From a virus, in the IMG/VR virus record IMGVR_UViG_3300045988_018139: a stretch of 45,605 bases of DNA; one strand, given 5' to 3'. How positions within the stretch are numbered: the stretch's first letter is position 1; the number at the start of each line of letters is the position of its first letter. The translations under genes were made by a program, and so were the position numbers. Positions 1 through 45,605 of this stretch are shown here, in pieces. The notes beneath the pieces are model-generated. The model ran no database searches and was not told the DNA's origin. It saw only the letters and a program-made list of their open reading frames with translations.

Positions 1-77
1 CGGGCTCTGGATGTATTTCTGGGCACCGGCCTTTGCCAGCGGCACGCTGGAATAGGTTTCAAGGTCAATGCTGAGAT
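1..77. repeat. Terminal direct repeat: 1-77 is identical to 45529-45605 (circular-contig overlap)
   Basis: The same 77-nt string (cgggctctggatgtatttctgggcacc...aaggtcaatgctgagat) is read at both ends of the window. The unique length is therefore 45,528 bp. Confidence 0.95.
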
Positions 78-1257: not shown

Positions 1258-1836
1258 TCAAAGGGCGGTGTCCGCCCATATCGCCTTGATTTTCACCCAG
1301 CGCTCATGCCGGGCTTTGGCGGCCTTGACCTTGCGGGTCAGGCGGTTGTTGTTCTTGAGGGTTTCCACCACGGCGGGGTGACGGCTCTTGGGGTTGCTCA
1401 CCTTGCGCCAGCCGTCTGTAAATTCACGGGAGGCCAGTTTCCAGGCGTCCTCACTCTCCTGGATGGCTTGCTCCAGGTAGGCGGTCAGCCGGTCAATGGC
1501 CTGCCAGTTATCGAAGTCCCAGAGGTGCATCAGCTTGAACAGTTTGCGGGTGTTGGTGATGGTCAGGTCACAGAGCCGGTCAAGGTAGATGTCCGCCCGG
1601 AAAGTGTCCGCCTGGATGTGGACCAGAGTGTCCGGGTCAGTGAACATGGGGCAGTCCTCACAGCGGTCCCGGTCCGGGAGGGCGGAGATGTAGCTCCTGG
1701 GCTCCGCCACCTTGTATTGCACGGACCTGGAGCAGCACGGGGACACGGGGAAAACCGGGTCATGGTCCTTGCAGTCCAGGGGGACAAACGGGCGGAGGCG
1801 GGGCTGGGCGTGGGCACAGGTGTTGTATTTAAGCAT
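1258..1836 (-). CDS. Hypothetical protein, Cys-rich N-terminus (192 aa)
   Basis: The ATG at 1834-1836 overlaps the stop of the upstream nuclease gene, suggesting coupling. No family recognised. Confidence 0.6.
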   Translation of the reverse strand: MLKYNTCAHAQPRLRPFVPLDCKDHDPVFPVSPCCSRSVQYKVAEPRSYISALPDRDRCEDCPMFTDPDTLVHIQADTFRADIYLDRLCDLTITNTRKLFKLMHLWDFDNWQAIDRLTAYLEQAIQESEDAWKLASREFTDGWRKVSNPKSRHPAVVETLKNNNRLTRKVKAAKARHERWVKIKAIWADTAL

Positions 1837-3019
1837 CGGCGGCCACCCCGGCGAAGTCAGCAGCGGCGGGGCTGTATGCCTCCCGCTTGTCAGACGCAGG
1901 GGCAAGAGTGGGCTTGCCCAGGGGCTTGGTCACAAAGCTGCCGATTTTCTCCGCAAACTCCGCCTTGCCCATGAGCTTTTCCAGCTCGGTGAGGGTCTTG
2001 GGCTTGCGGTCATAGACCAGGGCCTCATCATAACCGGCGGCAATGACCGCCTGGATGGCGGCGTCCTGGTCGGTAAAGGTCCGATTGCTCCGGCCCGCCA
2101 CCAGTTTCCATCCGGGGATTTCCTTGCCAGCCAGCAGGGCCTCCGTGGCGTATTCCTCCAGGTCTTTGTACCATTGGACCAGCAGCTTTCCCCGTTCCAG
2201 CAGGTCACCGATTTCAGCATCCGTGAGGACCTTGCCCTCACCCTGGGGCTGTTTCCCGGCGGGCACACAGTCCTTGAAGTCCTCCAGGGCGGTGTTGACG
2301 TTGGCACGGGCCCGGCATTGAGCCTTGCCACGGCAAAAGCGGCAATGGTCACCGGGGACAAACTCACCCAGGCCGGAGTAGGCTTTCTGGGCAATGGGTT
2401 TGATGCTGTCCCCCCAGGCCCGCAGCTCATCAACGGTGATTTCATCCGTGGTGTAGCTGTCCAGCCGGGGCTGGTCAATGGTCATGCGGACCCGCTTGAT
2501 GGTGTCCCCGAACACGGGGGCGTAGCGGCGGAGAGCGCCCAGGGCATAGAGCCGCATTTGGGGATTGCCCACAGCGGACACGGGGACGCCCTTGCCGTGC
2601 TTGTAGTCCACGATGCTGAGGAGGTCGCCGCCGATGATGCAGCAGTCACAGGTGCCAAAGCCCTCCGGCACATAGTCCGAAAAATCCACCTGGACCTCAA
2701 CGGCCACGGTGGGGGCGGTGTCATAGGCCATGACCTGCTCCGTGATGTGCTCCAGGTAGAGGTCCGTGGTCTTGTCCATCTCCGGGTTGTAAAGCGGGTC
2801 TTTCTTGAGCTTGTTGAGCCGGGTGTTGTAGGTCCGGGTGCTCATGGGGGTGCATTTCTTGGTGACCTTGAGCTCACCAATGGCGTGGGCCAGGCGGCCC
2901 TCCTCCGCATATTCGCTGGTGCTTTCCGGCAGCCCCTCCTCAAAACGGGGGGCTGCCGTGCATACCATCCAGCGGGCGGCAGAGGATGCCGAAAGCAGGG
3001 CGTGCTTGACAGGGGGCAT
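1829..3019 (-). CDS. DUF2800-family PD-(D/E)XK (Cas4/RecB-like) nuclease
   Basis: It has an IVDYKHGKG core and a C-terminal Cys cluster (CRFCRGKAQC). AAGGAGG RBS is present. The neighbours are those usually found with DUF2800. Confidence 0.8.
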   Translation of the reverse strand: MPPVKHALLSASSAARWMVCTAAPRFEEGLPESTSEYAEEGRLAHAIGELKVTKKCTPMSTRTYNTRLNKLKKDPLYNPEMDKTTDLYLEHITEQVMAYDTAPTVAVEVQVDFSDYVPEGFGTCDCCIIGGDLLSIVDYKHGKGVPVSAVGNPQMRLYALGALRRYAPVFGDTIKRVRMTIDQPRLDSYTTDEITVDELRAWGDSIKPIAQKAYSGLGEFVPGDHCRFCRGKAQCRARANVNTALEDFKDCVPAGKQPQGEGKVLTDAEIGDLLERGKLLVQWYKDLEEYATEALLAGKEIPGWKLVAGRSNRTFTDQDAAIQAVIAAGYDEALVYDRKPKTLTELEKLMGKAEFAEKIGSFVTKPLGKPTLAPASDKREAYSPAAADFAGVAADA

Positions 3020-6367: not shown

Positions 6368-7408
6368 TCAGGCGGTCAAGAGCTCTTTCTCAAAGAGCAT
6401 GGCCGCCGATTTCCACCCCAGCAGCTTGCGGGGGTAGTTGTTCACCCACCTCTCTGCCGCCCTCACCTCCTCCGGCTTTACGGTGTCAAAGCTGGTGCCC
6501 TTGGGGAAAAACCGTCTAATCAGCCGGTTCATGTTCTCATTGGACCCCCGCTCAAAGGCGCTGTATGGGTGGCAGAAAAACACAATGGTCCGCTTGCCCT
6601 TGCGCCGGTGGGCGGCCTCGATACCCTCGAAGTCTTGAAATTCGCAGCCGTTGTCCACCGTGATGCTCTTGAACAGCTTATAGAACAACTTGCCAAAACG
6701 GCGCTCCAGGCTGTTGATGGCCTTGACCACGCTGGCCGCCGTGTGGTCCTCCAGGAGCATCACAATGCCCATGCGGGTCCGGCGCTCGGTGAGGACCAGC
6801 AGGGCTTTTTTGGAGCCCTTGCATCCCATGATACTGTCCATCTCCCAATGGCCGAAACTGCCCCGGCCTTTGACCTCCTGGGGGCGGTTCTCAATGCTTT
6901 TCCCGTGGGAGCTCCGGGCGGCCTGCTGTCTGCTTTTGGCGGAGTAGTGGCGGCGGCCCTTATTGTGCAGATGCTCTGGGGTGAGGTGGAGGAACACGTC
7001 CCCACGGTAGATGTAATTATAGAGCGTGTTCTCACATATCACGGTGTTATAAACCTCACCGTTGTTGCGGATTTCCGCAAGGGCGGCTCCGGGGGCAAAG
7101 CCTTGAACCATGACCAGCTCCTCCAGCCGTTGGACCAGGGCGTGGTCTTTGCCAATCTTGAGGTCCCGGCCTTTTTCTTTGAGAAAATCCCGGTATTTTC
7201 GCTCTGCCACTTCCGGGCAGTAAACCTCAATAAACTCATATTCGGAGGTTTGCTGGATGCAGAGGCCCCGGTTGATTTCATAGTAGATGGACCGCTCACA
7301 CTTGCCCAGAGCGCTGGCAATGGCGGTTTTGGTAAAGCCTTTTTTGAGCATCCGCTCCAGGGTCAGGCGTTGGTCCCAGGTGAAATGCTTGGCGTCTTTA
7401 TGGTTCAT
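6368..7408 (-). CDS. IS30-family DDE transposase/integrase (346 aa)
   Basis: N-terminal HTH (GFTKTAIASALGKCERSIYYEINRG) and catalytic-core segments GHWEMDSI...ITVDNGCEF...RGSNENMNRLIRRFFPKG are typical of IS30 transposases. GGAGGTG RBS is present. Confidence 0.9.
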   Translation of the reverse strand: MNHKDAKHFTWDQRLTLERMLKKGFTKTAIASALGKCERSIYYEINRGLCIQQTSEYEFIEVYCPEVAERKYRDFLKEKGRDLKIGKDHALVQRLEELVMVQGFAPGAALAEIRNNGEVYNTVICENTLYNYIYRGDVFLHLTPEHLHNKGRRHYSAKSRQQAARSSHGKSIENRPQEVKGRGSFGHWEMDSIMGCKGSKKALLVLTERRTRMGIVMLLEDHTAASVVKAINSLERRFGKLFYKLFKSITVDNGCEFQDFEGIEAAHRRKGKRTIVFFCHPYSAFERGSNENMNRLIRRFFPKGTSFDTVKPEEVRAAERWVNNYPRKLLGWKSAAMLFEKELLTA

Positions 7409-7770: not shown

Positions 7771-7806
7771 AAAAATTTGAGCCCGGTGCAATCCGGGCTC
7801 TTTTCT
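7771..7806. terminator. Bidirectional terminator-like hairpin between the two XRE genes
   Basis: GAGCCCGG-tgcaat-CCGGGCTC (7780-7801) is flanked by an A7 run and TTTTC. Confidence 0.6.
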
Positions 7807-8102
7807 CAGTCATCGGCTTTGTGCTGCCGCAGCCGGTCTGCCAATTCCGCAAGGATGGCCACATCCCGCTCATCCAGGCCGGTCACGTTCACTGTATGCA
7901 GGGGCTCAACGCCCAGCAGGTAGTCCGTGGAAACGGAGAACAGCCGGGCCAGGTCCACCAGGGATGCCGGGGACGGTGTAGAAAGTCCCTGCTCCCAGGA
8001 GTTGACGCCGTTCCTGGTTATACTCAGCCGCCGGGCAAGGTCTGCTTGGGTCCAGCCCCGTGCCTGCCGGAGTTCTTTTATTCGTTCTGCTATCACCAGC
8101 AT
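7806..8102 (-). CDS. XRE-family HTH regulator with C-terminal extension (candidate repressor)
   Basis: HTH segment IKELRQARGWTQADLARRLSITRNGVNSWEQG is present. The start is ATG at 8100-8102 or the in-frame GTG 6 nt downstream, which is better spaced from GGAGG. The N-terminal 73 aa of the listed ORF are rejected. Confidence 0.75.
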   Translation of the reverse strand: MLVIAERIKELRQARGWTQADLARRLSITRNGVNSWEQGLSTPSPASLVDLARLFSVSTDYLLGVEPLHTVNVTGLDERDVAILAELADRLRQHKADD

Positions 8103-8118
8103 CACCTCCACAATGTAA

Positions 8119-8146
8119 ATTATAGTGTGCTCGTTTGACTTGTCAT
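8119..8146 (-). promoter_or_regulatory. Putative promoter ATGACA-16-TATAAT for 7806..8102
   Basis: Read on the minus strand. The -35 region overlaps the tandem TTGTCA/TGACAA repeats at 8134-8152. Confidence 0.5.
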
Positions 8147-8167
8147 TGTCACTTTGGGCTCCAATAC

Positions 8168-8196
8168 TTGACACAATGGTGGTGAAACCGTACAAT
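8168..8196 (+). promoter_or_regulatory. Putative promoter TTGACA-17-TACAAT for the plus-strand cassette, divergent from 8119-8146
   Basis: TTGACA is at 8168-8173 and TACAAT at 8191-8196, with a 17-nt spacer. AAGGAGG follows at 8206-8212. Confidence 0.55.
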
Positions 8197-8220
8197 GGAG
8201 ATGCAAAGGAGGCGGTGCCA

Positions 8221-8487
8221 TTGTTCACGGAGGATGAAAAGCGTTTCCTTGATGCGCTTGAGGCCGCTCTGGTGACGGCCAGAAAGAGCCCGGCGGTTAA
8301 TATTACCCGCATGGCAGACAAGGCGCTTTCCGTGCGTTCTCGACACGGCTATTTAGGTAAAATCAAGTTGCAGGGCCGGAAAACATGGATGCAGTACATG
8401 ACCAGCCTTTACAACGCAGAGGTGGCGGAAAACCGCCCGCTTGAGGAATACATCAAGCTCCTCAAGTATTGGGTGCGGGCCGCATGA
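8221..8487 (+). CDS. Hypothetical protein (about 88 aa), first gene of the plus-strand cassette
   Basis: The in-frame TTG at 8221 lies 8 nt after AAGGAGG. The listed ATGs at 8125 and 8176 lie upstream of or inside the predicted promoter and have no RBS. No family recognised. Confidence 0.5.
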   Translation: MFTEDEKRFLDALEAALVTARKSPAVNITRMADKALSVRSRHGYLGKIKLQGRKTWMQYMTSLYNAEVAENRPLEEYIKLLKYWVRAA

Positions 8488-11491: not shown

Positions 11492-13299
11492 TACTGAAAA
11501 GCACCTCCGATGTTGGAAATGTAGCCGCCGGTGTTGCTGGACCCCCGGCTCACAGTGACCTTGAAATTAAAGGCAAAGCCGTTGGTGGCGGTCTGGTTGG
11601 TGAAAACGTGGTTGTTGCCGTTCTTCACGTCCTGGGTGGCGTCCTCCCAGACGGGCTCCGTGTCGTTGGCGTTGTTGGTCACCAGCACCTCCAGGTCAGC
11701 ATCCGCCGGGATGGAGCCCAGGATGTTGAGCACCATGACCGTGATGGTGTCATCGGCGTCCAGGGGCTCCGCCAGGGTGATGGAGGCCTCATAGACTGCC
11801 TTGGTAAAGGTCACGGTGTAGGGGGTGCTGTCCGCTTTGCCGTCATTGGCCACCACCTTGATGGTGTGCTGGCCGTTGAGAACCTTTTGCCAGTTGGCGG
11901 CGGTGACACACTGGACGGTGTTGCTCTGCTCCAGGGTGGCGGTATAGGTCCGCTTGAGCACGTCATCCAGATACTCTTTGACCGTCACGGTGTCCCCGTC
12001 TGCATCGTCCACGGAGTAGGTCAGGTCAAAGCCCTCCGTCTTGGTCCCCAAATCGGAGCCGGAGGCCGTGGAGCTGGTGATGGTGGGGAGGTTGTTGTTG
12101 TCAACCGTCCGGGTTTCGCTGGTCACATAGGAGCTGGTGGAGTTGTAGGTGTCGTAGGCCCGGACACGATAGGCCACCGTGTTCCACCCGGAGGTGATGG
12201 TGTCCGTGTAGGCCAGGCCGCTGCCCTTGTAAATCTGGGTCCAGGAGCCGCCGTCCACTTGCCGCTCCAGCTCATAGCCGCTGAGGTTGCCGTCACTGTC
12301 AGAGGCCTGGGTCCAGGAGATGGCCAGGTTGCTGCCGCCACGGACAACAGCGGGGACGGTGATGCTGCCGGGAGCGCCGGGGGCCCGGTTGTTCGTGACC
12401 GTCACGGTGCTGCTGGTACGCCAGCCGCTCTCAAGCCCGGCGCTGTCATAGGCCTTGACCCGGTAGGCCACGCTTTCTGTGCCAAAGGCCACGGTGTTGC
12501 TGGTGCTGGTGGCGCTGCCCTGGTAGATTTGGGACCAGGAGCCGCCGTCCGTCTGGCGCTCTACAATGTAGCCCTCAAGGTTGTCCTCAGCGTCCGTGGA
12601 GGCCGCCCAGCTCACTGTGATGCTGGTGCCGCCGTTGATGCTCTGGGGGACGGAAATGCTGGCGGGCGTAGACGGGGCGGTGTTCTGAAACACAGAGCCG
12701 TCATCGCTCACATAGAGGGAGGAGGGGAGAGTGAAAGCGGGGCGGGACCCGTCGGTGCCGGTGCAGTAGTTGTCGTAGATGTTGCCATTGGAGTACAGCC
12801 TCCAGGCGACGCCGGTGCTGTTCGTGTACGGGGAGCGGGTCCATTGAGTGGTGGCGCTGCCCCCTTGATAGGCGATTTGTAAAGTGGACGCAATGGGCAG
12901 GGCGGAGCCCTCCACGTTGGCGTAGGTGTGAGATTGCCCCAGCTCGGTGAGGGACAGCAGGAAAACAGCATCGGACCGGGTGGTGACGGTGTTGTTACCG
13001 TTGCCCGGCGTGTAGCGGTAGGTGGTGGTGCCCATCGCCTCCTGGATGTCGGCGTCCAGCAGCGCTTTATAGGTGCTGTTCAGCCAGGACCGCATGGTGC
13101 AGCTTGCCCAGGCGTTCACGTTGGAGCTGTGCCAGGCCCGCTGGTCATACACGTCCTTGCGGACCACCAGGGTCCTCCCGGCTCCGTTGAGCGATTGCTC
13201 ATAGTTGTGGCAGGCAACATAGAAGTCAACCAGCGTGCCGTTTTCTTTCAGCTTGATAATACTGCCGGTTGCCTTATTGCCCAGGGTGGTTGTGGCCAT
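11491..13299 (-). CDS. DGR target 1: fibre/receptor-binding-like protein (DUF6273/CLec-like variable domain, two FN3-like repeats, C-terminal domain)
   Basis: VR1 lies at codons 155-188. Two FN3-like repeats of about 95 aa follow (…ITVSWAASTDAEDNLEGYIVERQTDGGSW… and …LAISWTQASDSDGNLSGYELERQVDGGSW…). AAGGAGG RBS is present, and a TAATG overlap links it to the RT gene. Confidence 0.85.
   Translation of the reverse strand: MATTTLGNKATGSIIKLKENGTLVDFYVACHNYEQSLNGAGRTLVVRKDVYDQRAWHSSNVNAWASCTMRSWLNSTYKALLDADIQEAMGTTTYRYTPGNGNNTVTTRSDAVFLLSLTELGQSHTYANVEGSALPIASTLQIAYQGGSATTQWTRSPYTNSTGVAWRLYSNGNIYDNYCTGTDGSRPAFTLPSSLYVSDDGSVFQNTAPSTPASISVPQSINGGTSITVSWAASTDAEDNLEGYIVERQTDGGSWSQIYQGSATSTSNTVAFGTESVAYRVKAYDSAGLESGWRTSSTVTVTNNRAPGAPGSITVPAVVRGGSNLAISWTQASDSDGNLSGYELERQVDGGSWTQIYKGSGLAYTDTITSGWNTVAYRVRAYDTYNSTSSYVTSETRTVDNNNLPTITSSTASGSDLGTKTEGFDLTYSVDDADGDTVTVKEYLDDVLKRTYTATLEQSNTVQCVTAANWQKVLNGQHTIKVVANDGKADSTPYTVTFTKAVYEASITLAEPLDADDTITVMVLNILGSIPADADLEVLVTNNANDTEPVWEDATQDVKNGNNHVFTNQTATNGFAFNFKVTVSRGSSNTGGYISNIGGAFQ
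12736..12835 (-). repeat. DGR variable region 1 (VR1), matches TR 14574-14673
   Basis: Hand alignment covers 100 bp with 13 mismatches. All are at plus-strand T of TR, which is coding-strand A and mostly falls in AAC codons. Confidence 0.9.
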
Positions 13300-14327
13300 T
13301 AGATTTCCTCCTTTAGAATGTTCTGCACACGGTCCCGCACCTGCTGGCGCAGGGACCAGGTGTTGCCGTGAGCGGCGTGGGCGTCCCAGGCCTGCCAGCT
13401 TTGCAGGATTTTCTCACGGGTCACAAGGCCCGCTGGATAGTCCTGCTCCCACCGGCGGAGCTTGGAGCGCATACGCTTGATGCTGCTGTGCCGCAGCTTG
13501 CGGATGACCTTGCCCTCCTCGGTCAGATAGGTGTGAAAGCCCAGAAAATCAATCCCATTGCGGATGGGGAAAATCTGGGTTTTCTCATTGAGCTCCAGCC
13601 CCAGGCTGGCCATAAAGGCCCGGATTTCCTTGAGGCAAAATTGCAAGTAGGCCTTGTCCGGGTGGATGAGGAAAAAGTCATCCATGTAACGGCCATACCA
13701 GCGGATGCGGAGCTTTTCTTTGACAAAGTGGTCAAATTCATCCAGGAACAGCAGGGCAAAAAGCTGGCTGGTTTGATACCCCAGCGGCAGCCCGTCCGTG
13801 CTGTCTATGTAGGTACACAGCAGGTCATAGACAATGGGCTCAAGGTCCAGCTTTTTGAGCTTTTCCTTGAGCCGGTCATGGTCTATGGAGGCGAAAAAGT
13901 GCCGCACATCTGCCTTGAGGACCCAGCCCTCCGATGTGCGGTATTTGTTCCAGTATTCCGTGAAAAATCCACGCAGCCGGTCCAGGCCGAAGTGGAGCCC
14001 TTTGCCTTTCTGGGATGCGTAGTTGTCCAGGATGAAACTGTTGGTAATCCGCTCATAGATGAGGTTATCCACCAATGCGTGCTGGACCACTTTGTCAACA
14101 AAAGCCGGGGCCTGCACAAGCCTTTTCTTTGGCTCGTAGGCATAGAACACCCGGAACAGCCCCGGCCTGTAAATCTTGGTTTGCAGGATGTAGACCAGGT
14201 TGACGATGTTGGCCAGCAGGTGGACCTCATAGTGTGCGGTGGCGGCCCTGGAGCGCTTGCCCCGCCTGGCCGCCAAATAGGCCTTGTAGAGCACCGCAAA
14301 GGTGCATATCTGTGAAAATTTAAGCAC
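13299..14327 (-). CDS. DGR reverse transcriptase
   Basis: RT motifs are present, including RYMDDF (YxDD box) and the DGR-typical LPLGYQTSQ ([I/L]GxxxSQ). TR is immediately upstream and avd is adjacent. The listed start is GTG. Confidence 0.9.
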   Translation of the reverse strand: MLKFSQICTFAVLYKAYLAARRGKRSRAATAHYEVHLLANIVNLVYILQTKIYRPGLFRVFYAYEPKKRLVQAPAFVDKVVQHALVDNLIYERITNSFILDNYASQKGKGLHFGLDRLRGFFTEYWNKYRTSEGWVLKADVRHFFASIDHDRLKEKLKKLDLEPIVYDLLCTYIDSTDGLPLGYQTSQLFALLFLDEFDHFVKEKLRIRWYGRYMDDFFLIHPDKAYLQFCLKEIRAFMASLGLELNEKTQIFPIRNGIDFLGFHTYLTEEGKVIRKLRHSSIKRMRSKLRRWEQDYPAGLVTREKILQSWQAWDAHAAHGNTWSLRQQVRDRVQNILKEEI

Positions 14328-14573: not shown

Positions 14574-14673
14574 AGCGGGGCGGGACCCGTTGGTGTTGGT
14601 GCAGTTGTTGTTGTTGATGTTGCCATTGGAGTTCAGCCTCCAGGCGTTGTTGGTGTTGTTCGTGTTCGGGGAG
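14574..14673 (-). repeat. DGR template repeat (TR), non-coding
   Basis: On the minus strand it is rich in AAC triplets (…AACACGAACAACACCAACAAC…AACATCAACAACAACAAC…). It matches VR1 and VR2 except at adenines. It lies between avd and the RT. Confidence 0.9.
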
Positions 14674-32975: not shown

Positions 32976-34199
32976 TCAAAAACTGAAAAGTTGCGGCCCA
33001 AAGACCTTGTGGACAAAATAGCGCACATCGTCCATGGCGTGGTCATTCTCTTTGATGGGCCGGTCCATGGGGGCCTTTTCGTCCCAGCGGTAGAGCCCAA
33101 ACTCCCGGATGCAGTCCGTGCAGCCGGAGCAGATGAAAATGTCCCCGCTTTGGAGCCGTGTGGCCACATTGCGGATGCCGTCCAGCACGGAGTTGGAGGC
33201 CTTTTCCACATAAAAGCGGCCATGCCGCCGGATGACCTCAATGAAACTGGCCGCTGAGGGGTCCACGATGACCGCCCGGATGGGCAGGTTGCCTGCCAGC
33301 TTTTCCAGCCCTGTGTAGTGCTCCTCATCGGTGCGCTGGCGTCCCTCTTTGCGGCTGTCAAAGTAATATTCCCGGATGCGATACCATTTCCCGGCAGCCC
33401 GGCCCCAGAGGCCCATGCTGGTGGGGTTGATGGTGCCATAGTCCACGGAAATGTAGTAGCGGTCATAAGGCCGGGGCTCATCCGGCACCACATGAAAATC
33501 CTTGTTGAACATGGTATAAATCAGCCCCTCCGCCACCACCCAGAGGCCCCGGATAAAGCGGTCATAAAACACGCCGGAGTATAGGCTCTCATACCTGGCC
33601 TTGACGGCGGCGGAGAGGCTGAGGTTGTCATCCATGGTGAAATGGAGGTGCAGCATGTTCCGCTTGGCGGCCTCCACAATCCATGTGAGATAAAACCAAT
33701 GGGACGGGCCCTCCGGGTTGCAGTTAAACCAGAGCTTGGAGCCCTCCACGCTGCACCGGGCACAGGCCTGCTCCACGAAAGAGCGGGGCATGAGGGCCAC
33801 CTCATCCAGCAGCACGCCCGCCAGGGTGATGCCTTGGATGAGTGAGGCGCTGCTCTCATCCCGCCCGCCGAACAGGTAGAAGTTGTTGGAGCGCCCGGCG
33901 GCGCTCACCACAATCTTGTTTTCGGTGCGGTATTCCCGGAAAGAGAACACCCCGGCCAGCCAGGTGGGCAGGTTGGTGGTCACGTTGCGCCGCAAGCTCT
34001 CAATGGTCTTGCCGCAGAGGGCGAAGTTTTGACCTTGAAAGCGGCACATGGCCCACATGACAAAGCCCACCGTCATGGCCACCGTCTTGCCGGAGCGGAT
34101 GGAGCCGTCACAGATGATGCCGTCATAGTCCCCAAAGCCCGGCCTATTCCACCAGGTCATGGCCAGGTTTTGCCGGGGGCTCAATTTCTGGTATCTCAT
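32976..34199 (-). CDS. terL: Terminase large subunit
   Basis: Walker A motif DGSIRSGKT is present. It has a PBSX/Terminase_3-like layout with a C-terminal nuclease region, and overlaps terS. Confidence 0.9.
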   Translation of the reverse strand: MRYQKLSPRQNLAMTWWNRPGFGDYDGIICDGSIRSGKTVAMTVGFVMWAMCRFQGQNFALCGKTIESLRRNVTTNLPTWLAGVFSFREYRTENKIVVSAAGRSNNFYLFGGRDESSASLIQGITLAGVLLDEVALMPRSFVEQACARCSVEGSKLWFNCNPEGPSHWFYLTWIVEAAKRNMLHLHFTMDDNLSLSAAVKARYESLYSGVFYDRFIRGLWVVAEGLIYTMFNKDFHVVPDEPRPYDRYYISVDYGTINPTSMGLWGRAAGKWYRIREYYFDSRKEGRQRTDEEHYTGLEKLAGNLPIRAVIVDPSAASFIEVIRRHGRFYVEKASNSVLDGIRNVATRLQSGDIFICSGCTDCIREFGLYRWDEKAPMDRPIKENDHAMDDVRYFVHKVFGPQLFSF

Positions 34200-34698
34200 C
34201 CGTGCCTATCTCCTCTCTGGTGCTTTCCTCAATCACCTCAAAGATGTTGTTTTCCTGCTCATTGCCGGAGCCGTTGTTGGCATCAAAGACGCCCAGGTGC
34301 TTGCCCAGCAGCTCCAGAGCCCTCACCTTGTCGTGGAGCTTGATTTCCGTGCCATATTGGCCCTCCTTGATGGAGGCAACGGCCTTTTTCTTTTCCTCCG
34401 GCACCTCATCCGTGGGGGTCAGCCGGACCAGGCCGTTGTGGGTGATGGTTGCAAAGTCGGTGCCGTTGGCAAAGGCGATGGCGGCCAGCTCCTCCAGCAC
34501 CCGCTCCTGGGTGATTTCCAGCTTGCCCCGGAGCTTTTCCTGGCGCTTTTGGATTTCGGCGGAAACGTTATTTTTCGTTATGAGTTGCCGCCCAATGTTC
34601 GGGTCCTTATATCCGGCCCGTCTTGCGGCGGCGGTGGCATTGAGGTCCACCAGGTACTCATCCACAAACCGCTTTTGCTTGTCAGTCAGCTTTGCCAC
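34144..34698 (-). CDS. terS: Terminase small subunit
   Basis: KLTDKQKRFVDEYLVDLNATAAARRAGY is the Terminase_2 signature. The likely start is GTG at 34696-34698. The hydrophobic N-terminal extension of the listed ORF is rejected. Confidence 0.8.
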   Translation of the reverse strand: MAKLTDKQKRFVDEYLVDLNATAAARRAGYKDPNIGRQLITKNNVSAEIQKRQEKLRGKLEITQERVLEELAAIAFANGTDFATITHNGLVRLTPTDEVPEEKKKAVASIKEGQYGTEIKLHDKVRALELLGKHLGVFDANNGSGNEQENNIFEVIEESTREEIGTDEIPEIEPPAKPGHDLVE

Positions 34699-34903
34699 AC
34701 TCACCACCCCAAAACATAGTAAAAGGCCGCCTCCCCCGCACAGGGGAAAGCAGCCCGAAAAAATCATAGGTGAATGGCGGCAGGGGTCTGGTTTTCACTT
34801 CCGTCACCCTGCCGCCACCCTCAAAGGAGGTAATACCATGATGAGGCATACACCCGCAATATCAGTGTAACATAAAGACAGCGGACAAAACGGACAAATT
34901 GCT

Positions 34904-35640: not shown

Positions 35641-37037
35641 GCCACACTCTCCTTTACCTTGCGTATTCTGGCCTTGAGGGCCCGCATGACAGCCTCATGG
35701 GTGTCTGCCCGGTCCCGTATGGTGGCCATGACATCCTCATCCTCACAGCCCTGCACAATGAGATAATGCACAAACACCTTTTCGTAGGGGGAGCCCTGCC
35801 GGTACAGGCGGCAGTTGCCCTGGTCGTTCAGCTCGAAACTCCAGTTTAAGCCATACCATACCACATGGCGGCCACCGGCCTGGAGGTTGAGCCCGTAGGC
35901 GCAAGAGGCCGGATGCACCAGCAGCACATCCACCTCTCCGGCGTTCCAGGCCTCCTCATCCTCCACGCCCTTATACACCCGGACCCGCAGCTTGTCCGCC
36001 CGGCCCCGGTTGTACTTCTCCAGGCGCTCCAGGATGCGGTCCTTGTCGTGCTGGTAGCCGTAGAATGTGAGGCAATGCTCCCCATTGAGTTGCTCCAGCA
36101 GCTCCGTGTAGGCCTCCAGCTTGCCGTCATGCACCGGGACCACCTTGCCGTCATTGCCATACACGGCCCCATTGCAGAATTGCAGCAGCTTGCCCACCAG
36201 GACCCCGGCGGTGCCCGCCGTGATGATGTCCTCATCCACCTCCAGCAGCAGGTCCCGCTCAAACTGGTCATAGGCCTTTTTGGCCTTGGGGTCCAGCATG
36301 ACGGGGATTTCATGCTGGATGAAGTCCGGCAGTTGCAGGTAGTCCTCCGCTTTCATGGAGATGCAGATGTCGGAGATGGCACCCAGCACGGCGCTCTCCG
36401 CTCCGTCCTTGGCCTTGTAGGAAAAAATCTGGGTCCGGCTCCGCTGGTCCGGGTCAAAGTATCTCTCCCGGTAGGCGGAAAGCGTGGGCCCCAGACGGGC
36501 CCCGCCGTCCAGGAGGTACACCTGGGCCCATAAGTCAATCAGCCCCTTGGAGGACGGTGTGCCGGTCAGCAGCACCACTTTCTTAATAAACCGGCGGATG
36601 CGCTTGGCCGCCTTAAACCGCTTGCTCTGGGGGTTTTTGAAACTGGTGCTTTCATCGAAAACCACCATGTCAAACGGCCAGGCCTGCTGGTAGTAGTCCA
36701 CCAGCCACTCAAAGTTTTCACGGTTGATGACATAGACATCCGCCGGAGTGTTGAGGGCCTTGATGCGCTTGCTGGCGCTCCCCAGAACGGTGGACACCCG
36801 GAGATGCTGGAGATGGTCCCACTTAGCTGCCTCCTTGCTCCAGGTGGCCTCCGCCACCTTTTTGGGGGCCACCACCAGGACCTTGGCCACCTGCCAGCGG
36901 AAATATTTGAGGATATTGACCGCAGACAGGGTGATGACCGTTTTGCCCAGCCCTGGCCGGAGAAACAGCCCTACCGTGGGGTCCTCCACCACCCGCTGGA
37001 TGCAGTAGGCCTGGTAGTCATGCGGTATGTACTGCAT
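35637..37037 (-). CDS. SNF2-family DEAD/DEAH helicase
   Basis: Motif I LRPGLGKT and motif II VVFDEST are present, plus a C-terminal helicase domain. The ATG at 37035-37037 lies 9 nt after GGGAGG. Confidence 0.85.
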   Translation of the reverse strand: MQYIPHDYQAYCIQRVVEDPTVGLFLRPGLGKTVITLSAVNILKYFRWQVAKVLVVAPKKVAEATWSKEAAKWDHLQHLRVSTVLGSASKRIKALNTPADVYVINRENFEWLVDYYQQAWPFDMVVFDESTSFKNPQSKRFKAAKRIRRFIKKVVLLTGTPSSKGLIDLWAQVYLLDGGARLGPTLSAYRERYFDPDQRSRTQIFSYKAKDGAESAVLGAISDICISMKAEDYLQLPDFIQHEIPVMLDPKAKKAYDQFERDLLLEVDEDIITAGTAGVLVGKLLQFCNGAVYGNDGKVVPVHDGKLEAYTELLEQLNGEHCLTFYGYQHDKDRILERLEKYNRGRADKLRVRVYKGVEDEEAWNAGEVDVLLVHPASCAYGLNLQAGGRHVVWYGLNWSFELNDQGNCRLYRQGSPYEKVFVHYLIVQGCEDEDVMATIRDRADTHEAVMRALKARIRKVKESVA

Positions 37038-37314
37038 CACCAAAAACCTCCCTCAGAAACTCTTTCACGGCGTCCATCCCATAAAGCACCCGGACATCCG
37101 CCCCCCGTTTCTCCAGCTCACTCCTCTGCCATTTCTGCATCTTGGCCAGCCTCCCAATCTCTGTTTTCAGCTCAACATAGACGGTCTTGCCGGTGGGTGT
37201 TATGACGATGCGGTCAGGGACGCCCGGATTTCCGGGAGAAACAAACTTATAGCACAGGCCGCCGTGCTCTTTCACCTTGCGGACAAGGTAACTCTCAATA
37301 CTGCTTTCCCTCAA
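37018..37314 (-). CDS. VRR-NUC domain nuclease
   Basis: GVPDRIVITPTGKTVYVELKTEIGRLAKMQKWQRSELEKRGADV matches VRR-NUC. The start is probably TTG at 37312-37314, 9 nt after GGAGG. The listed start at 37323 is also TTG. Confidence 0.75.
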   Translation of the reverse strand: MRESSIESYLVRKVKEHGGLCYKFVSPGNPGVPDRIVITPTGKTVYVELKTEIGRLAKMQKWQRSELEKRGADVRVLYGMDAVKEFLREVFGDAVHTA

Positions 37315-37341
37315 TTTCCTCAACCTCCAATCTGAGGGGGT

Positions 37342-37586
37342 GGAACATTTGGAACATTACGCGCGTACATATACGCATACAGGCGGTTTAGAGAGTTTTT
37401 ATACTCTCTATTTCCTCTATTTTTCAATCAATAGAATTAAATGTTCCAATGTTCCACATAGTCAAAAAAGCCAGTGTTTACAAGGGTTTAGCCCGGAACA
37501 TTTAGCGGAACATTTAGCGGAACATGTGCCGGAACATTGAAACGCCGTTTTTAAGATGTTCCGGGCAATGTTCCGCCCAATGTTCC
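37342..37586. repeat. Iteron-like array: 11 copies of GGAACAT in dyad-symmetric blocks (candidate replication origin or regulator binding array)
   Basis: Forward copies start at 37342, 37351, 37495, 37507, 37519 and 37531. Reverse copies (ATGTTCC) start at 37441, 37449, 37556, 37568 and 37580. Two blocks have 12-bp phasing, with units CGGAACATTTAG and AATGTTCCG. An AT-rich core with the hairpin TAGAGAGT-n6-ACTCTCTA (37389-37410) lies between blocks. Confidence 0.85.
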
Positions 37587-37590
37587 GGGG

Positions 37591-39993
37591 TCAAAAGGCC
37601 CTCCGGCGGAGGAAACCACGCTGCTTTCCGCAGTAGCCAAAGCGCATGGAGTTCTTGCTTTTTTCCCAATTCGGGCAAGCCTCAATGATGCTGTTGATTT
37701 CCGCCGTGTCGGAGTAGCGGATGTCCCGCTGCTTGCCGTCCAGGGCCTCGCACCACACTTCCAGGGCACACACCCGGTCCCGGTCCACCAGCTTGACCTC
37801 ACCCTGCACGGCTCCGCCCCAGAACATGCGGCGGCGGTCCAGTGGCCAGCTCTGCCAGTCCTCCGGGACCTGCCGGTCTAAAAAATCCAGGATGACGCCC
37901 TCCCTGGTGCTCACCTCACGGTGCTCCTCCTGCTTTTGCTTGGCGGCGTCCTCCAGCTCCCCTTTGAGGAAAAGGGGCTCCCCGGTCCTCCAGCGGACCA
38001 CGGCCTCCGCCCATAACTGGTCAACCTCCTCCGGCAAATCGGACCACACCTTTTTTGTGGCCGGGGCCACGCCCACGTCCACGGGCCAGAAACGACGGTT
38101 GCCGGTGCGGTCTTGGAGATAGTCAGAGGTGTTGGTGGTCCCGAAGAACACGCAGCACCGGGGCAGCTCTTTGACGTGGCGGCCATAGGCGGCCCGGAAA
38201 CGGTCAGCCCGCAGGGAGAGAAACTGCTTGATGCGGGCAATGTCCGTGCGCCGGAAAGCATCCAGCTCCGCAATTTCCACCAGCCAGACGCCCTGGAGCA
38301 GTTCAGAGGCCTCCTTGCCCTCAAAGGTGCGGATGCTGTCATTGAACCAGCCCCGGCTCATCTTATCCAGCAGGGTGCTTTTGCCCAGGCCTTGCGGCCC
38401 GGAGAGGATGAGCATGGTGTCATATTTGGTGCCGGGGACCATGGCACGGGTCACGGCGGCGGTGAAAGCCTTGCGGGTCACGGCTCTGGTGTAGGGGGTA
38501 TCAGCGGCCCCCAGGTAGTCGATGAAAAGGGTGTCCAGGCGGGGCGTCCCGTCCCAGACAAGGCCCTTGAGATAGTCCTGTATCTCATTGAACGCATGGG
38601 CGGTGGAGTGCAGGGAAAGCGCCCCGTCAATCTTGCCGTTGCCGGTGATGTGGTGGTAGCGCTCCATGTACCAGTAGAGGCCCTGGTTGTCGTTGTCATC
38701 CCAAAAGCGGCGCTCCGTGCGGCTGTCCCAGGGGAGGGCCCCCAGGACCTCACCACGGCCCGCAAATTGGTTGAGGGCAAACTTGCCTTTGAGGAGCGGG
38801 TCATGCTCCAGGATTATCCACACATTATCAATGGTCGATTTGGGGAGCCCCGTCTGGGTATTCACGGCCAGCTTGCCCATCCAGTTGGCTGGGTCCTCAT
38901 CGTTGGTGCCCTCCACACCCTCAAAGTCCTTGACGGCCTCCTGGTAGCGCTCCTGGCTCATCAGGGCGGCCACATCGGCGTCCTGGACGGCCAGCTCACA
39001 CATGGCCTTGTAGGAGGGCAGGCGGTTGGTGGGCGTGCCCGGCTGGGCCTCATCGTCTTTGTCCCCAAAGCGATGGAGGCGGACCATATCAAAGGCATTG
39101 ACCAGGCGGTTGCTGCACGGGTCGGTGGCGTGGTGGCTGTAAAGGAATTTGCCGCTGTCATAGATGACGGCGCCGCCGGTGGTGGAGCCGCCCAGGTAGG
39201 TGTAGCGGCCCGGCATATTGTCCACCGGCTCATAAATGCCGGGGATGAGCTCATCCATGGCCCGGTAGATGTCATAGGTACGGCAGAACGCCCCCACCAC
39301 GCCGGTCTTGGCCTCCGGGTCACCCTGCTTGACGGCCAGCTTTGGCAGGCTCAGAGCGCCCGGCACCTGGGGCCAGGTGGTGCAGTCGGTCCAGTCATCG
39401 TATTTGGCCAGCAGGCCGTTGGCGGAGAGCAGGGGCTTGTCTTTCCACACATAGATGTATTGGCTGTCAGCACAGCAGGATGGCCAATACATGAGCCGGG
39501 ACACCTCAAAGGTGGTGGGGTCACACAGCTCCAGGCCGATGAGCTCCGCCATTTTGCGGGCGATGGGCTCATATTCATCCGCTGTCATGGTGCGGTCCGT
39601 AGGGAGCAGGACACGCAGACGGGGAGCTGCTGGGCTGTGCTTACGGGTGGAATAGATGCAATAGCCGCAGCCCAGGGCCTCCACCCGGCGCAGGACATCC
39701 TCCGTGCCGCCGGAGGGGATGTTGTCCAGGTCCAGGGTGACCACATCACGCCCGGTCACGTTGTTGGCCTTGCGGCGGGGCCCGGACAGTGTGCCGGCCA
39801 TAAAGCCGCCCACGTCCTTGAGGTCATCCTGCTGGGCCTTTTTCATATTCAGATATTCCGCCAGGGTTTCCGTGCCTCTGGCCGGGGCCTGGAGCCGGGC
39901 CCAGAGCTCTGAGATGAGCATGGTCTGGGGCTGCCAGGTCATGGCCCGCCGGTTGCTCCCGGCGGAGATTGTTATTTTGCGGTCATATTGCAT
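37591..39993 (-). CDS. Primase-helicase, VirE (virulence-associated E) family P-loop NTPase with N-terminal primase-like region
   Basis: 800 aa. Walker A ILSGPQGLGKST is present, and the VirE-type C-terminal half contains RFRAAYGRH...FFGTTN. Confidence 0.8.
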   Translation of the reverse strand: MQYDRKITISAGSNRRAMTWQPQTMLISELWARLQAPARGTETLAEYLNMKKAQQDDLKDVGGFMAGTLSGPRRKANNVTGRDVVTLDLDNIPSGGTEDVLRRVEALGCGYCIYSTRKHSPAAPRLRVLLPTDRTMTADEYEPIARKMAELIGLELCDPTTFEVSRLMYWPSCCADSQYIYVWKDKPLLSANGLLAKYDDWTDCTTWPQVPGALSLPKLAVKQGDPEAKTGVVGAFCRTYDIYRAMDELIPGIYEPVDNMPGRYTYLGGSTTGGAVIYDSGKFLYSHHATDPCSNRLVNAFDMVRLHRFGDKDDEAQPGTPTNRLPSYKAMCELAVQDADVAALMSQERYQEAVKDFEGVEGTNDEDPANWMGKLAVNTQTGLPKSTIDNVWIILEHDPLLKGKFALNQFAGRGEVLGALPWDSRTERRFWDDNDNQGLYWYMERYHHITGNGKIDGALSLHSTAHAFNEIQDYLKGLVWDGTPRLDTLFIDYLGAADTPYTRAVTRKAFTAAVTRAMVPGTKYDTMLILSGPQGLGKSTLLDKMSRGWFNDSIRTFEGKEASELLQGVWLVEIAELDAFRRTDIARIKQFLSLRADRFRAAYGRHVKELPRCCVFFGTTNTSDYLQDRTGNRRFWPVDVGVAPATKKVWSDLPEEVDQLWAEAVVRWRTGEPLFLKGELEDAAKQKQEEHREVSTREGVILDFLDRQVPEDWQSWPLDRRRMFWGGAVQGEVKLVDRDRVCALEVWCEALDGKQRDIRYSDTAEINSIIEACPNWEKSKNSMRFGYCGKQRGFLRRRAF

Positions 39994-43623: not shown

Positions 43624-45605
43624 TTAGTCTTTGGTAAAGTAGTAGCCCACCCAGCCAGCCGCCTTGAGCGGCAGGTCAGGGGCCCAGGGGACCGGCTCCC
43701 CCATGATGGAGCAGACGGTGCCCAGCATGGCGTCCTCCGTGTCCCAGGGGGCCACATCAATGACCACCTCGTCATGGACGTGGAACACCACCGGGAGCCC
43801 GGCGGCCTCCAGCCGGTCAATGGACAGGGCCAGGCAGTCACGGGCAATGGCCTGGACGCAGTTCTCCACCAGCTTGCCGCCGTAGGTTTCAATGCGTTTC
43901 CACCGTTTGGTTTTCTGGTCCATGCCCATGTAGGAGATGGAGGGCCGCCCCCATTCGTTCTGGCCAATGCTGGGGCTGATATAGTAGAGCTTGCGGTCAG
44001 AGGGGAGCCGGATGGTGAGGCAGTCCACGCCGTTGTCATAGTCATACTCACGGGCCAGCAGCAGGCCGTTGACGCCCACGCTGCCGCCCTCGGTGATGAC
44101 CTGGACGGCGGCATTGTCCATGGAATACCACAGGTCACGGATGCGCTTGTTGGCCTCCCGCCAGCGGCTCACGATGTCCGGCAGCTCCTCCTCAGTGAGC
44201 CCCATGTCCAGGGCTCCCATGGTGATGAGGGCCCCGGTGCTGCCCTGGTAGCCCAGGGCCAGCTCTGCCACCTTGCCCTTTTGCCGGAGCGCATACTCTG
44301 GATTGCCCTTTTTGATGAGCTCCAGAGGCACCCCAAACATCTGGGAGGCAGAGGCCTCATAGATTTTGCCGTGGGTGCGGAACACCTCCAGCCGCCATTG
44401 TTCCTTGGCCAGCCATGAGATGACACGGGCCTCAATGGCGGAAAAGTCGGCGTCAATCAGTACATGGCCCTCCGGGGCCACAAAGGCCGTGCGGATGAGC
44501 TGGCTGAGGGTGTCGGGCACGCTGCCATAGATGAGCCGCAGGGCATCCAGCTTGCGGGCCTTGACCAGCTCACGGGCCAGGTCCAGCGGCTCCGTGTAGG
44601 TCCGGGGCAGGTTTTGCACCTGCACCAGCCGCCCGGCCCAGCGCCCGGTCCTGTTCGCTCCGTAAAACTGGAGCAGGCCCCGGACACGTCCATCCGCACA
44701 GACAGCGGCCTCAATGGCGTCATATTTCTTGGTGGAGGTCTTGCCCAGCTCTTGGCGTATCTCCAGCATCCGGCTCACCTGGGGGCTGTTATCGTCCCGG
44801 CCCAGCAGGCGGGCAACGGTGTCTTTTCTCAGGTCGGCCAGCTCCTCACCAATTTCCTCCTGGAGCCAGGTGGTGAGCTGGGCCACGCTGTTGGGGTTGG
44901 ACAGGCCGGAGAGCTGCATGGCCTCCGCCATGAGCGTCTGGCGCACGGTGTCCCCCAGATAGAGGGCCCCGGTGACCAGCTCCAGGTCCACGGCCACGCC
45001 CCTGGCGTTGATGATGAGGTCGGTTTCCCATTGCTTTTGCACCCAATCCGGGACCGGGAAAGCGGAGAGCCGCCGCTCAATCTCCATTTCCGTCACCACG
45101 TCCTGCTTGCAGTATTCTTTGAAAAGCTCCCATTTGGCGGGGTCATGCTGGGGCAGGTTGCGGGTCCTCTGGCCGTTGGCCTTGGAGGGCTTGCAGGGGA
45201 TGCAGAAATAGCGGATGAGCGCCTTGCCGGTGTTGAGCTTTTGCTTGTCCTGGGGGAGCCCCAGGGCCTTGCCGGTGGCGTCCAGGCCTGCCGTGTAGCC
45301 GCAATAGAGGCCGTGGAACATGGTGCAGCGCCATTGGTCCGGCGGCAGGGTGCCCATGAATTTGGAGAGGCAGCCCCACTCAAAGGGGGCGTTGTAGGCG
45401 TGCTTGATGTACTCCGGGCTGGTGATGGCCTGGACCAGCCACGGGGGGAGCCGTTCCCCCCGTGCCAGGTCGATGATTTCAACAGGCGCACCATCCAGGC
45501 TGAACGCAAAGAGCAGGATTTCAAAGTCCGGGCTCTGGATGTATTTCTGGGCACCGGCCTTTGCCAGCGGCACGCTGGAATAGGTTTCAAGGTCAATGCT
45601 GAGAT
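43624..45605 (-). CDS. Family-A DNA polymerase with 3'-5' exonuclease domain (gene completed at 78..84 across the circular junction, about 662 aa)
   Basis: The ExoI motif IDLETYS is seen only when the junction is read through. Also present are RTGRWAGRLVQVQNLP (motif A region) and HVHDEVV (motif C). Confidence 0.9.
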   Translation of the reverse strand, partial: LSIDLETYSSVPLAKAGAQKYIQSPDFEILLFAFSLDGAPVEIIDLARGERLPPWLVQAITSPEYIKHAYNAPFEWGCLSKFMGTLPPDQWRCTMFHGLYCGYTAGLDATGKALGLPQDKQKLNTGKALIRYFCIPCKPSKANGQRTRNLPQHDPAKWELFKEYCKQDVVTEMEIERRLSAFPVPDWVQKQWETDLIINARGVAVDLELVTGALYLGDTVRQTLMAEAMQLSGLSNPNSVAQLTTWLQEEIGEELADLRKDTVARLLGRDDNSPQVSRMLEIRQELGKTSTKKYDAIEAAVCADGRVRGLLQFYGANRTGRWAGRLVQVQNLPRTYTEPLDLARELVKARKLDALRLIYGSVPDTLSQLIRTAFVAPEGHVLIDADFSAIEARVISWLAKEQWRLEVFRTHGKIYEASASQMFGVPLELIKKGNPEYALRQKGKVAELALGYQGSTGALITMGALDMGLTEEELPDIVSRWREANKRIRDLWYSMDNAAVQVITEGGSVGVNGLLLAREYDYDNGVDCLTIRLPSDRKLYYISPSIGQNEWGRPSISYMGMDQKTKRWKRIETYGGKLVENCVQAIARDCLALSIDRLEAAGLPVVFHVHDEVVIDVAPWDTEDAMLGTVCSIMGEPVPWAPDLPLKAAGWVGYYFTKD

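Follow-up and report, generated by a model that had tools for sequence, protein, structure and literature searches.

What the dense cluster of GGAACAT repeats in the viral record IMGVR_UViG_3300045988_018139 does for its phage is the question that this locus raises. The repeats occupy positions 37342-37586 (245 bp) of the window, by which we mean the whole 45,605-nucleotide stretch of DNA that was analysed, and they lie between the gene for an 800-amino acid (aa) VapE-type primase-helicase, here called PriRep, and a gene for a VRR-NUC protein. An earlier note, made from the DNA letters, had proposed an iteron-type replication origin beside its initiator gene or, alternatively, an operator array controlling the late operon. 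We have found that the adjacent gene is homologous to the Rep initiators of Staphylococcus aureus pathogenicity islands (SaPI), that the array has the anatomy of a SaPI origin, and that the iterons covary with PriRep at the level of single residues across about 160 loci. These three lines of evidence support the first proposal, and we consider it very probable that vegetative replication of this phage, a myovirus type of gut Clostridia with a circular 45.5-kb genome, starts at the array, and that the array is an origin built like those of the SaPIs. As a system it is of a known kind, a self-loading PriRep origin of the SaPI and staphylococcal cassette chromosome mec (SCCmec) type, and not a new one; what it adds is an apparent and unusually clean natural code of specificity, with a single residue of the wing at its centre, and a core of conserved sequence outside the iterons.

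The repeat array and the sequences between its blocks

A genome-wide count, which had been suggested as a check of enrichment, gave 14 copies of GGAACAT on both strands of the window, against a mean of 5.8 and a maximum of 13 in dinucleotide-preserving shuffles. Eleven of the 14 fall within the 245 bp of the array, where 0.031 would be expected (Poisson P ~7e-25). The remaining three (3839, 33655, 45315), which had escaped the earlier note, are each isolated and at chance level.

The four repeat blocks described previously were all recovered where they had been placed. Block A (37341-37358, plus strand) consists of two copies of TGGAACATT at 37341 and 37350, 9 bp apart (GGAACAT at 37342 and 37351); it lies directly upstream of the VRR-NUC ribosome-binding site and is inverted with respect to block B, 98-107 nt away. 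Block B (37440-37456, minus strand) has AATGTTCC at 37440 and 37448 (cores at 37441 and 37449), and its two iterons, which abut at 8-bp spacing and read GGAACATTGGAACATT on the gene strand, are the most conserved feature of the array. In block C (37494-37538, plus strand) four copies of CGGAACAT at 37494, 37506, 37518 and 37530 follow an exact 12-bp period, with GGAACAT cores running from 37495 to 37531. Block C is inverted with respect to block D (37555-37587, minus strand), in which three copies of ATGTTCCG at 37556, 37568 and 37580 keep the same exact period; read on the gene strand block D is CGGAACAT[TC], and it begins 3-4 nt past the PriRep stop codon (37591-37593). The convergent blocks C and D enclose a 17-bp spacer (37539-37555, GAAACGCCGTTTTTAAG, 41% GC), which in distant relatives is longer and holds extra iterons. 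Inner and outer blocks had been said to face each other; blocks do face each other, but as two convergent pairs, A-> <-B and C-> <-D. The exact period of C and D likewise stands, whereas the helical phasing drawn from it is only approximate, since 12 bp is not one helical turn and successive sites are rotated by about 50 degrees.

The array was compared with those of 80 IMG/VR loci and 80 loci from GTDB genomes, in which PriRep is 63-100% identical to that of the window and which hold 136 distinct arrays. The four-block layout downstream of PriRep recurs in nearly all loci, with a median of 11 sites per array. Of the 136 distinct arrays, 119 have a tandem B pair spaced by 8 bp, and in 98 of these 119 a search within 60-160 nt found one or two inverted sites beyond B, mostly at 100-120 nt. 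Equivalents of block D carry each relative's own motif, and within any locus all blocks share one motif variant. At least 12 motif classes were seen (GGAACAT, G[CT]AACAT, GTAACAT, GTAACAA, CTAACAT, CTAACAA, CTTACAA, CTTACAT, ATTACAA, GTTACAT, GTTACAA and GTTACTT), and the genome set added GAAACAT, GGTAACC, CTAACTT, GCTACAA, GTGACAA and others. In five GTDB prophages (L123, L126, L137, L140, L142) genes are inserted after the PriRep stop codon and the array is displaced by 0.35-2.3 kb; in L125 no array was found within the 3-kb flank; and in L114, L118, L122 and L141 the upstream blocks are degenerate and the abutting B pair and the conserved core are retained.

Since blocks C and D can pair as a 39-nt inverted repeat that is 82% complementary, it is conceivable that the repeats, tandem or inverted, are neutral, or that they form a structured RNA or a cruciform, and that no protein is dedicated to their sequence. 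A weak, sub-threshold Rfam match resembling a microRNA precursor could be cited for this, but it merely reflects the C/D hairpin; even at a permissive E-value no Rfam family reached threshold, the sub-threshold matches reflect the inverted repeats, and the non-coding RNA reading was rejected. Moreover, the motif copies are conserved as the spacers diverge. The only contig of the GenBank phage collection that covers the array, the unannotated fecal MT835552, is an 81%-identical relative in which the motif copies are retained and the spacers and copy number have changed, which is the behaviour of a protein-binding array with evolving specificity. Neither neutral repeats nor an RNA fold would be expected to change their motif in all blocks of a locus together, in step with one residue of one protein, as is described below, and we regard such an explanation as barely credible. 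Two small open reading frames (ORFs), at 37340-37540 on the plus and 37514-37678 on the minus strand, overlap the repeats; relatives differ by ~10-nt insertions and deletions across the array, which disfavours a conserved reading frame there.

The 81 bp between blocks A and B (37359-37439) had been singled out as the most AT-rich stretch of the region, and they are indeed 35% GC against 59.5% for the window, with 60-bp windows falling to 27%. This stretch, by its composition the proposed unwinding region, contains the 8-bp-stem hairpin at 37389-37410 that had been noticed before, an inverted repeat TCTATT/AATAGA (37416-21 / 37430-35), two to three TAGAG repeats and CTCTAAACCGCCTG. Between block A and the AT-rich core lies a perfect 24-bp alternating purine/pyrimidine tract (37358-37381, TACGCGCGTACATATACGCATACA), the only such run of at least 20 bp in the 45.6-kb window, which could form Z-DNA or melt easily; relatives carry TACGCGCGCG-type alternating tracts at the equivalent position. 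Relatives with different iterons keep the same core elements, namely TCTATT-N8-AATAGA, two to three copies of TAGAG, CTCTAA.CCGCCTG and the GC-rich alternating tract. That these elements stay the same across the iteron classes implies a partner shared by all members of the family; candidates are a conserved part of PriRep (for example at a primase start site), the polymerase, host RNA polymerase and a host factor.

A second conserved non-iteron element, AAACCCTTG..GGCTTTTTT (37461-37493, minus strand), lies between blocks C and B and has the form AAACC(C/G)TTG...AAGGCTTTT. In many relatives (e.g. L022, L146 and L149) it is an A-tract/hairpin/T-tract that resembles a bidirectional intrinsic terminator. 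Folding of the C-B hairpin in 93 relatives gave -17.4 kcal/mol for L022 and -12.2 for L146, against -5.9 kcal/mol for the window, where the stem is mostly lost. A terminator scan of 36900-38000 matched only the AT-rich hairpin, on the non-coding strand, and was judged uninformative.

It is here that an operator or roadblock array has to be considered, in which the repeats would mainly control transcription, bound by PriRep or by another regulator, and the origin would lie elsewhere or be a secondary role. Its targets would be read-through from the early genes, or a promoter within the AT-rich core that drives VRR-NUC, SNF2, packaging and late genes. The array does lie between two gene blocks that share a strand, block A directly adjoins the ribosome-binding site of VRR-NUC, the terminator-like hairpin between C and B is found in many relatives, and by eye the core has a -10-like TATAAA and a -35-like TTGAAA hexamer. 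However, a scan of 36900-38000 for consensus sigma-70 promoters found none, and the spacing of the hexamers is not conserved among relatives, which differ by insertions and deletions of about 10 nt.

PriRep and the residue that follows the iterons

PriRep (37591-39993, minus strand) comprises an N-terminal archaeo-eukaryotic primase (AEP) primase-polymerase, a superfamily 3 (SF3) helicase of the VapE type and a C-terminal winged helix. The Pfam VapE-like_dom matches aa 475-692 (E 3e-78), PHROG matches are to families 256 (DNA helicase) and 9765 (DNA primase, E 1e-110), and by phmmer aa 369-729 match SaPI1 Rep1 of PDB entry 7PDS (E 2.3e-72). The full-length AlphaFold (AF2) model is mediocre (predicted local distance difference test, pLDDT, 65). 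In a Foldseek search with this model all six 7pds chains ranked first (E 1e-24 to 3.5e-23), with alignments that covered Rep1 from end to end at 32-34% identity, and the N-terminus matched the AEP PrimPol 6zp9 of cyanophage S-2L with probability 1.0.

The C-terminal domain (CTD, aa 687-800; coding region 37594-37935, minus strand), which is the most variable part of PriRep, was also modelled alone (AF2 pLDDT 89; predicted template modelling score, pTM, 0.81). This model fell on the Rep1 CTD in Foldseek with a template modelling (TM) score of 0.71-0.76 (E 1.5e-5), followed by winged-helix proteins matched weakly and with non-significant E-values. Together the 7PDS, Foldseek and CTD matches indicate that PriRep is a fused primase-Rep like that of SaPI5. 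The predicted fold of the CTD is thus that of a winged helix, and its proposed role in iteron recognition is supported by covariation. The N-terminal domain of the primase-helicase and the small helix-turn-helix (HTH) proteins had been nominated earlier as the candidate binders; the evidence points instead to the CTD. No RepA-like protein was found in the annotated window, where the sole protein that covaries with the motif is the helicase-primase fusion. An iteron origin of the plasmid type (RepA, pi or TrfA), in which a dimeric or monomeric WH1-WH2 Rep recruits the host DnaB through DnaA or DnaC, was rejected on these grounds.

The last 30 residues of PriRep hold the pattern G-x-x-G-X-Q-[RK]-G-F, in which X is Lys790 in the window (codon 37624-37626, minus strand), and the wing sequence reads ...MRF-GYCG-K790-Q-R792-GF. 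Among about 800 alignment columns residue 790 was the best predictor of iteron positions 2-3, with a normalised mutual information (MI/maxH) of 0.85 against 0.67 for the next column. For iteron position 4 the top column was residue 785, and at position 7 residue 792 shared first place. The CTD model puts residue 790 in the strand that comes immediately after the wing's FGYCG turn; the canonical recognition helix (aa 760-771) stays conserved across the iteron classes.

The correspondence between residue and motif is close. Lys790 goes with GGAAC in 19 of 19 distinct arrays, including those of 65%-identical proteins from bins labelled Schwartzia and Fretibacterium; Tyr790 with GAAAC in 7/7 (4/4 and three displaced arrays); Leu790 with GTTAC in 8/8; Val or Ile at this position with GTAAC in ~18/20; and Thr790 with CT[AT]AC in ~15/19. 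Ala790 is found with G[CT]AAC, ATTAC or GGTAAC, Ser790 with (G)CTAC and Trp790 with GTGAC, and where Q-K takes the place of Q-R, AC[T/C] takes the place of ACA. In several loci with Ala790 (L004-L009, L019, L044, L047 and L049) GTAACAT and GCAACAT are mixed within one array, which suggests that a small side chain relaxes discrimination at that base.

The C-terminus of PriRep physically adjoins the array, so that linkage could mimic covariation, and three controls argue against this. First, when the analysis was repeated with neighbouring proteins extracted by tblastn, the best columns of VRR-NUC, whose gene adjoins the array just as closely, and of SNF2, the 138-aa PHROG-36 regulator, TerS and ThyX were all at or below 0.55. 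Second, the five displaced arrays still carry the motif that residue 790 predicts. Third, identical residue-motif pairs recur on very different C-terminal backgrounds. In addition, the proteins of L004 and L011, whose iterons differ, are a case of a module swap of the CTD and show how specificity moves: four of the first 600 positions are different, against 32 of the last 200.

The same controls bear on two of the competing explanations. In the operator explanation another regulator could be the one that binds, but only the helicase-initiator covaries with the motif, the PHROG-36 regulator reaching 0.52 against 0.85 for residue 790, and the homologous systems use exactly such a layout as an origin (PMC9371898, PMC7581432). 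The late-operon operator put forward earlier therefore finds no support, given that the candidate late regulator, TerS, SNF2 and VRR-NUC all lack comparable covariation, and we think it unlikely that the array serves mainly in transcription. The repeats might also be a packaging site, a pac- or cos-type array bound by the small terminase: small terminases often bind short sites repeated in an array, and the gene for TerS (34144-34767) lies 2.6 kb downstream of the array in the same transcription unit. However, no TerS column tracks the motif (best 0.45), the site is not adjacent to terS, and the array stays with the replication module and with the PriRep specificity residue despite gene insertions, which makes this explanation very improbable. 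Binding by TerS and binding by the late regulator were both rejected on the covariation controls.

Returning to an origin read by PriRep, position 790, helped by 785 and 792, may constitute a simple and evolvable code for the base or bases 5' of an invariant [A/T]AC core. In the proposed code Lys would read GG, Tyr GA, Val or Ile GT(A), Leu GT(T), Thr CT, Ser, directly before the TAC form of the core, (G)C, and Trp GTG; at 792, Q-K instead of Q-R would read AC[T/C] instead of ACA. The conserved core (TCTATT/AATAGA, the TAGAG repeats, CCGCCTG and the alternating tract) may be a further functional element that some conserved partner recognises, for example the primase at its start site or a host factor. 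This reading, with a recognition code centred on residue 790, at least 12 orthogonal origin-specificity groups across a very large family of prophages of gut Clostridia and a core acting as a second functional element, is plausible, although we put it forward with some reserve. If true, related prophages could coexist in one cell without cross-activation, for example the Val790/GTAACAT and Tyr790/GAAACAT prophages of Oscillospiraceae bacterium 44-5.

Two prophages of the family were observed in one genome on two occasions. The pair of strain 44-5 (L087 and L127) is the one just named, and in Flintibacter muris DSM 110149 (L086 and L088) both prophages have Val790 and GTAACA. Such pairs bear on whether the diversification of the iterons avoids cross-activation.

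Known origins and a proposed mechanism

The Reps of SaPIs are self-loading SF3 helicases as well as initiators, and their C-terminal winged-helix domain recognises iterons of 5-6 nt (Qiao et al. 2022, PMC9371898). As described in two accounts (PMC9371898; also PMC7581432), the SaPI origin has 6-12 iterons immediately downstream of the rep ORF and an AT-rich region near its centre, with at least two iterons on each side in opposite directions; this anatomy goes back to Ubeda 2007/2012, of which Qiao 2022 gives a summary. Each side is presumed to receive one of two loading hexamers (PMC9371898). Structures of the SaPI replicon include 7PDS, a cryo-electron microscopy structure of SaPI1 Rep1 with DNA (PMC9371898), and 7OLA.

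Every sequence-level feature that defines a SaPI origin is present in our array. There is a homologous SF3/VapE helicase (E 2e-72) with a matching CTD fold (TM 0.75) and, as in PriRep5 of SaPI5, a primase fused to the helicase; 11 short iterons follow right after the stop codon, and the AT-rich stretch is flanked by block A (two sites, plus strand) and block B (two sites, minus strand). Among related elements, iteron specificity probably varies here as it does in SaPIs. The iterons here are longer than those of SaPIs (7-9 bp against 5-6 bp), seven of the 11 lie outside the AT-rich core in a convergent cluster of their own (C/D, with its 12-bp period), and the core has non-iteron sequences conserved across the family together with the 24-bp alternating tract. 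The host also differs, being Oscillospiraceae or other gut Clostridia, at ~60% GC. Whereas SaPIs are satellites, and a SaPI or other phage-inducible chromosomal island measures ~10-15 kb and lacks virion genes, the array belongs to a complete 45.5-kb myovirus that has its own PolA, single-stranded DNA-binding protein (SSB) and nucleases, as well as terminase, portal, capsid, sheath, tape measure and lysin genes, so that only the replicon type is shared.

The SCCmec helicase Cch2 binds direct repeats just downstream of its own gene, at the site where priming preferentially takes place (Bebel et al. 2020, PMC7581432). The likeness lies in a Rep-like helicase whose gene is followed at once, in the intergenic region, by the direct repeats. 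Cch2, however, has only three 5-nt iterons, and the array here is much larger and dyad-symmetric; the primase of the Cch2 system is a separate A-family polymerase/MP complex, whereas here the AEP primase is fused to the helicase. For the Enterococcus phage Abitsa a putative in silico origin with iterons and an AT-rich region, next to a PriRep5-like helicase, was described in 2026 (PMC13517437), a paper that contains no covariation or specificity analysis. Compared by that description, Abitsa resembles the phage studied here in being a true phage, in its self-loading helicase of the PriRep5 kind and in having an AT-rich region surrounded by iterons; it differs in that its repeats are seven in number and 10 bp long, and its genome is obligately lytic and of siphovirus type.

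The alpha protein of satellite phage P4 also combines a primase, an SF3 helicase and a C-terminal winged-helix origin-binding domain that recognises short repeated octamers (TGTTCACC). In P4 the type I iterons form two separate clusters, ori and crr, which are kilobases apart and not directly downstream of the alpha gene, and the alpha primase is of a different type from that of PriRep. No P4 alpha structure was among the Foldseek matches listed for the full-length and CTD models.

From these parallels a mechanism can be proposed. PriRep would contact the iterons, each of 7-9 bp, with the beta-hairpin wing of the winged helix at its C-terminus, and Lys790, together with Phe785 and Arg792, would determine the sequence recognised. 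With the abutting iterons of B on one side and the inverted ones of A on the other, the conserved 81-bp AT-rich core would receive two PriRep hexamers of opposite orientation, which would open the duplex and load onto it unaided. Priming by the N-terminal AEP primase domain would follow, with extension by the family-A polymerase of the phage. Blocks C and D, seven denser sites near the end of the gene, would most likely be a high-occupancy platform for nucleation or copy control, which is speculation on our part. The array may act as origin and operator at once; by binding there, PriRep may also affect read-through or the translation of VRR-NUC as a side effect, since block A abuts the ribosome-binding site and many relatives have the terminator-like C-B hairpin.

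Several observations weigh against an origin of this design. Only four of the 11 iterons flank the AT-rich core, which lies off-centre in the whole array, blocks C and D being to one side; the majority (7/11) flank a 17-bp spacer of 41% GC, which falls outside what the SaPI model explains. The conserved core implies a second interaction besides iteron binding, and it could be a promoter. Some loci with Thr790 or Pro790 break the simple code (L108, L131, L154, L114), and the covariation is partly confounded by shared ancestry and by the linkage of C-terminus and array, which the controls reduce and do not remove. An inflection of the GC skew had been named earlier as a further check, and the cumulative skew does have a local minimum at 38082, ~0.5 kb from the array, despite all genes lying on one strand; the minimum is weakly consistent with an origin, yet the trough is shallow and local and falls inside the PriRep gene rather than in the array, so that it is not decisive. 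As a whole the origin reading rests on homology and covariation, and it is from these that we infer binding, melting, bidirectional firing and the role of C/D.

The phage family and its genome

The related loci from GTDB genomes are prophages of Oscillospiraceae, Flintibacter, Acutalibacter, Butyricicoccus, Vescimonas and Ligaoa, and also of bins labelled Synergistales and Selenomonadaceae. A search for PriRep homologues gave 7,941 matches, and prophages of the family occur in dozens of genera. The analysis thus assigns a candidate origin and initiator to a very common, uncultured family of temperate phages that infect Oscillospiraceae and other Clostridia of the human and animal gut; of their replication, to our knowledge, nothing is known experimentally. 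Its natural variation offers a ready and testable map of which amino acid reads which base in a winged helix of the Rep family. A map of this kind for the SaPI and SCCmec proteins is not reported in PMC9371898 or PMC7581432, and it could guide the design of orthogonal replicons and plasmid vectors for gut anaerobes that are hard to manipulate.

The first 77 bp of the window (1-77) are repeated exactly at 45529-45605, an end overlap that indicates a circular assembly and a complete phage genome of 45,528 bp. All genes lie on the minus strand. Read along this strand and on around the circle, they encode a DUF2800 PD-(D/E)XK nuclease, an Enc34-type single-stranded DNA-binding protein, a family-A DNA polymerase, a C5 methylase, ThyX and a MazG-like protein; these are followed by PriRep, the array, VRR-NUC, an SNF2 helicase and the PHROG-36 regulator, and then by TerS, TerL, portal, capsid, tail sheath, tape measure, a diversity-generating retroelement and lysin. 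The window is therefore a complete myovirus-type phage with the array inside its replication module. This module spans the junction of the circle, with the nuclease at 1829-3019, the SSB at 497-1279 and PolA at 43624-45573, all on the minus strand.

On its downstream side the origin region is bounded by the VRR-NUC gene (Pfam VRR_NUC) and its ribosome-binding site, together 37018-37328 on the minus strand, with GGAGG at 37324-37328. The start of this gene had been placed at 37323, leaving a 267-bp spacer; alignment with relatives favours a TTG at 37314, which lines up with their ATG and is probably the true start, giving an intergenic spacer of 276 bp.

Two further features of the genome were noted. 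An ORF at 6368-7408 (minus strand) matches HTH_38 and an rve integrase core, in the manner of an IS30-type DDE transposase or integrase, both matches being below the Pfam gathering scores; it lies in a stretch of lower GC (55%, ~5-9 kb) and adjoins a CI-like HTH regulator (7806-8321). Since no tyrosine or serine integrase was found in the ORFs scanned, this ORF may be the integration enzyme, or else an insertion sequence. The diversity-generating retroelement has an RVT_1 reverse transcriptase at 13299-14327 (minus strand), a template repeat at 14574-14673 and a variable repeat at 12736-12835, the last of which lies inside a 602-aa tail-fibre/Ig-like ORF and, unusually, in its N-terminal third (~aa 155-188). 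The 100-nt template and variable repeats show 13 differences, all at positions where the template has T on the plus strand, that is, A on the coding strand.

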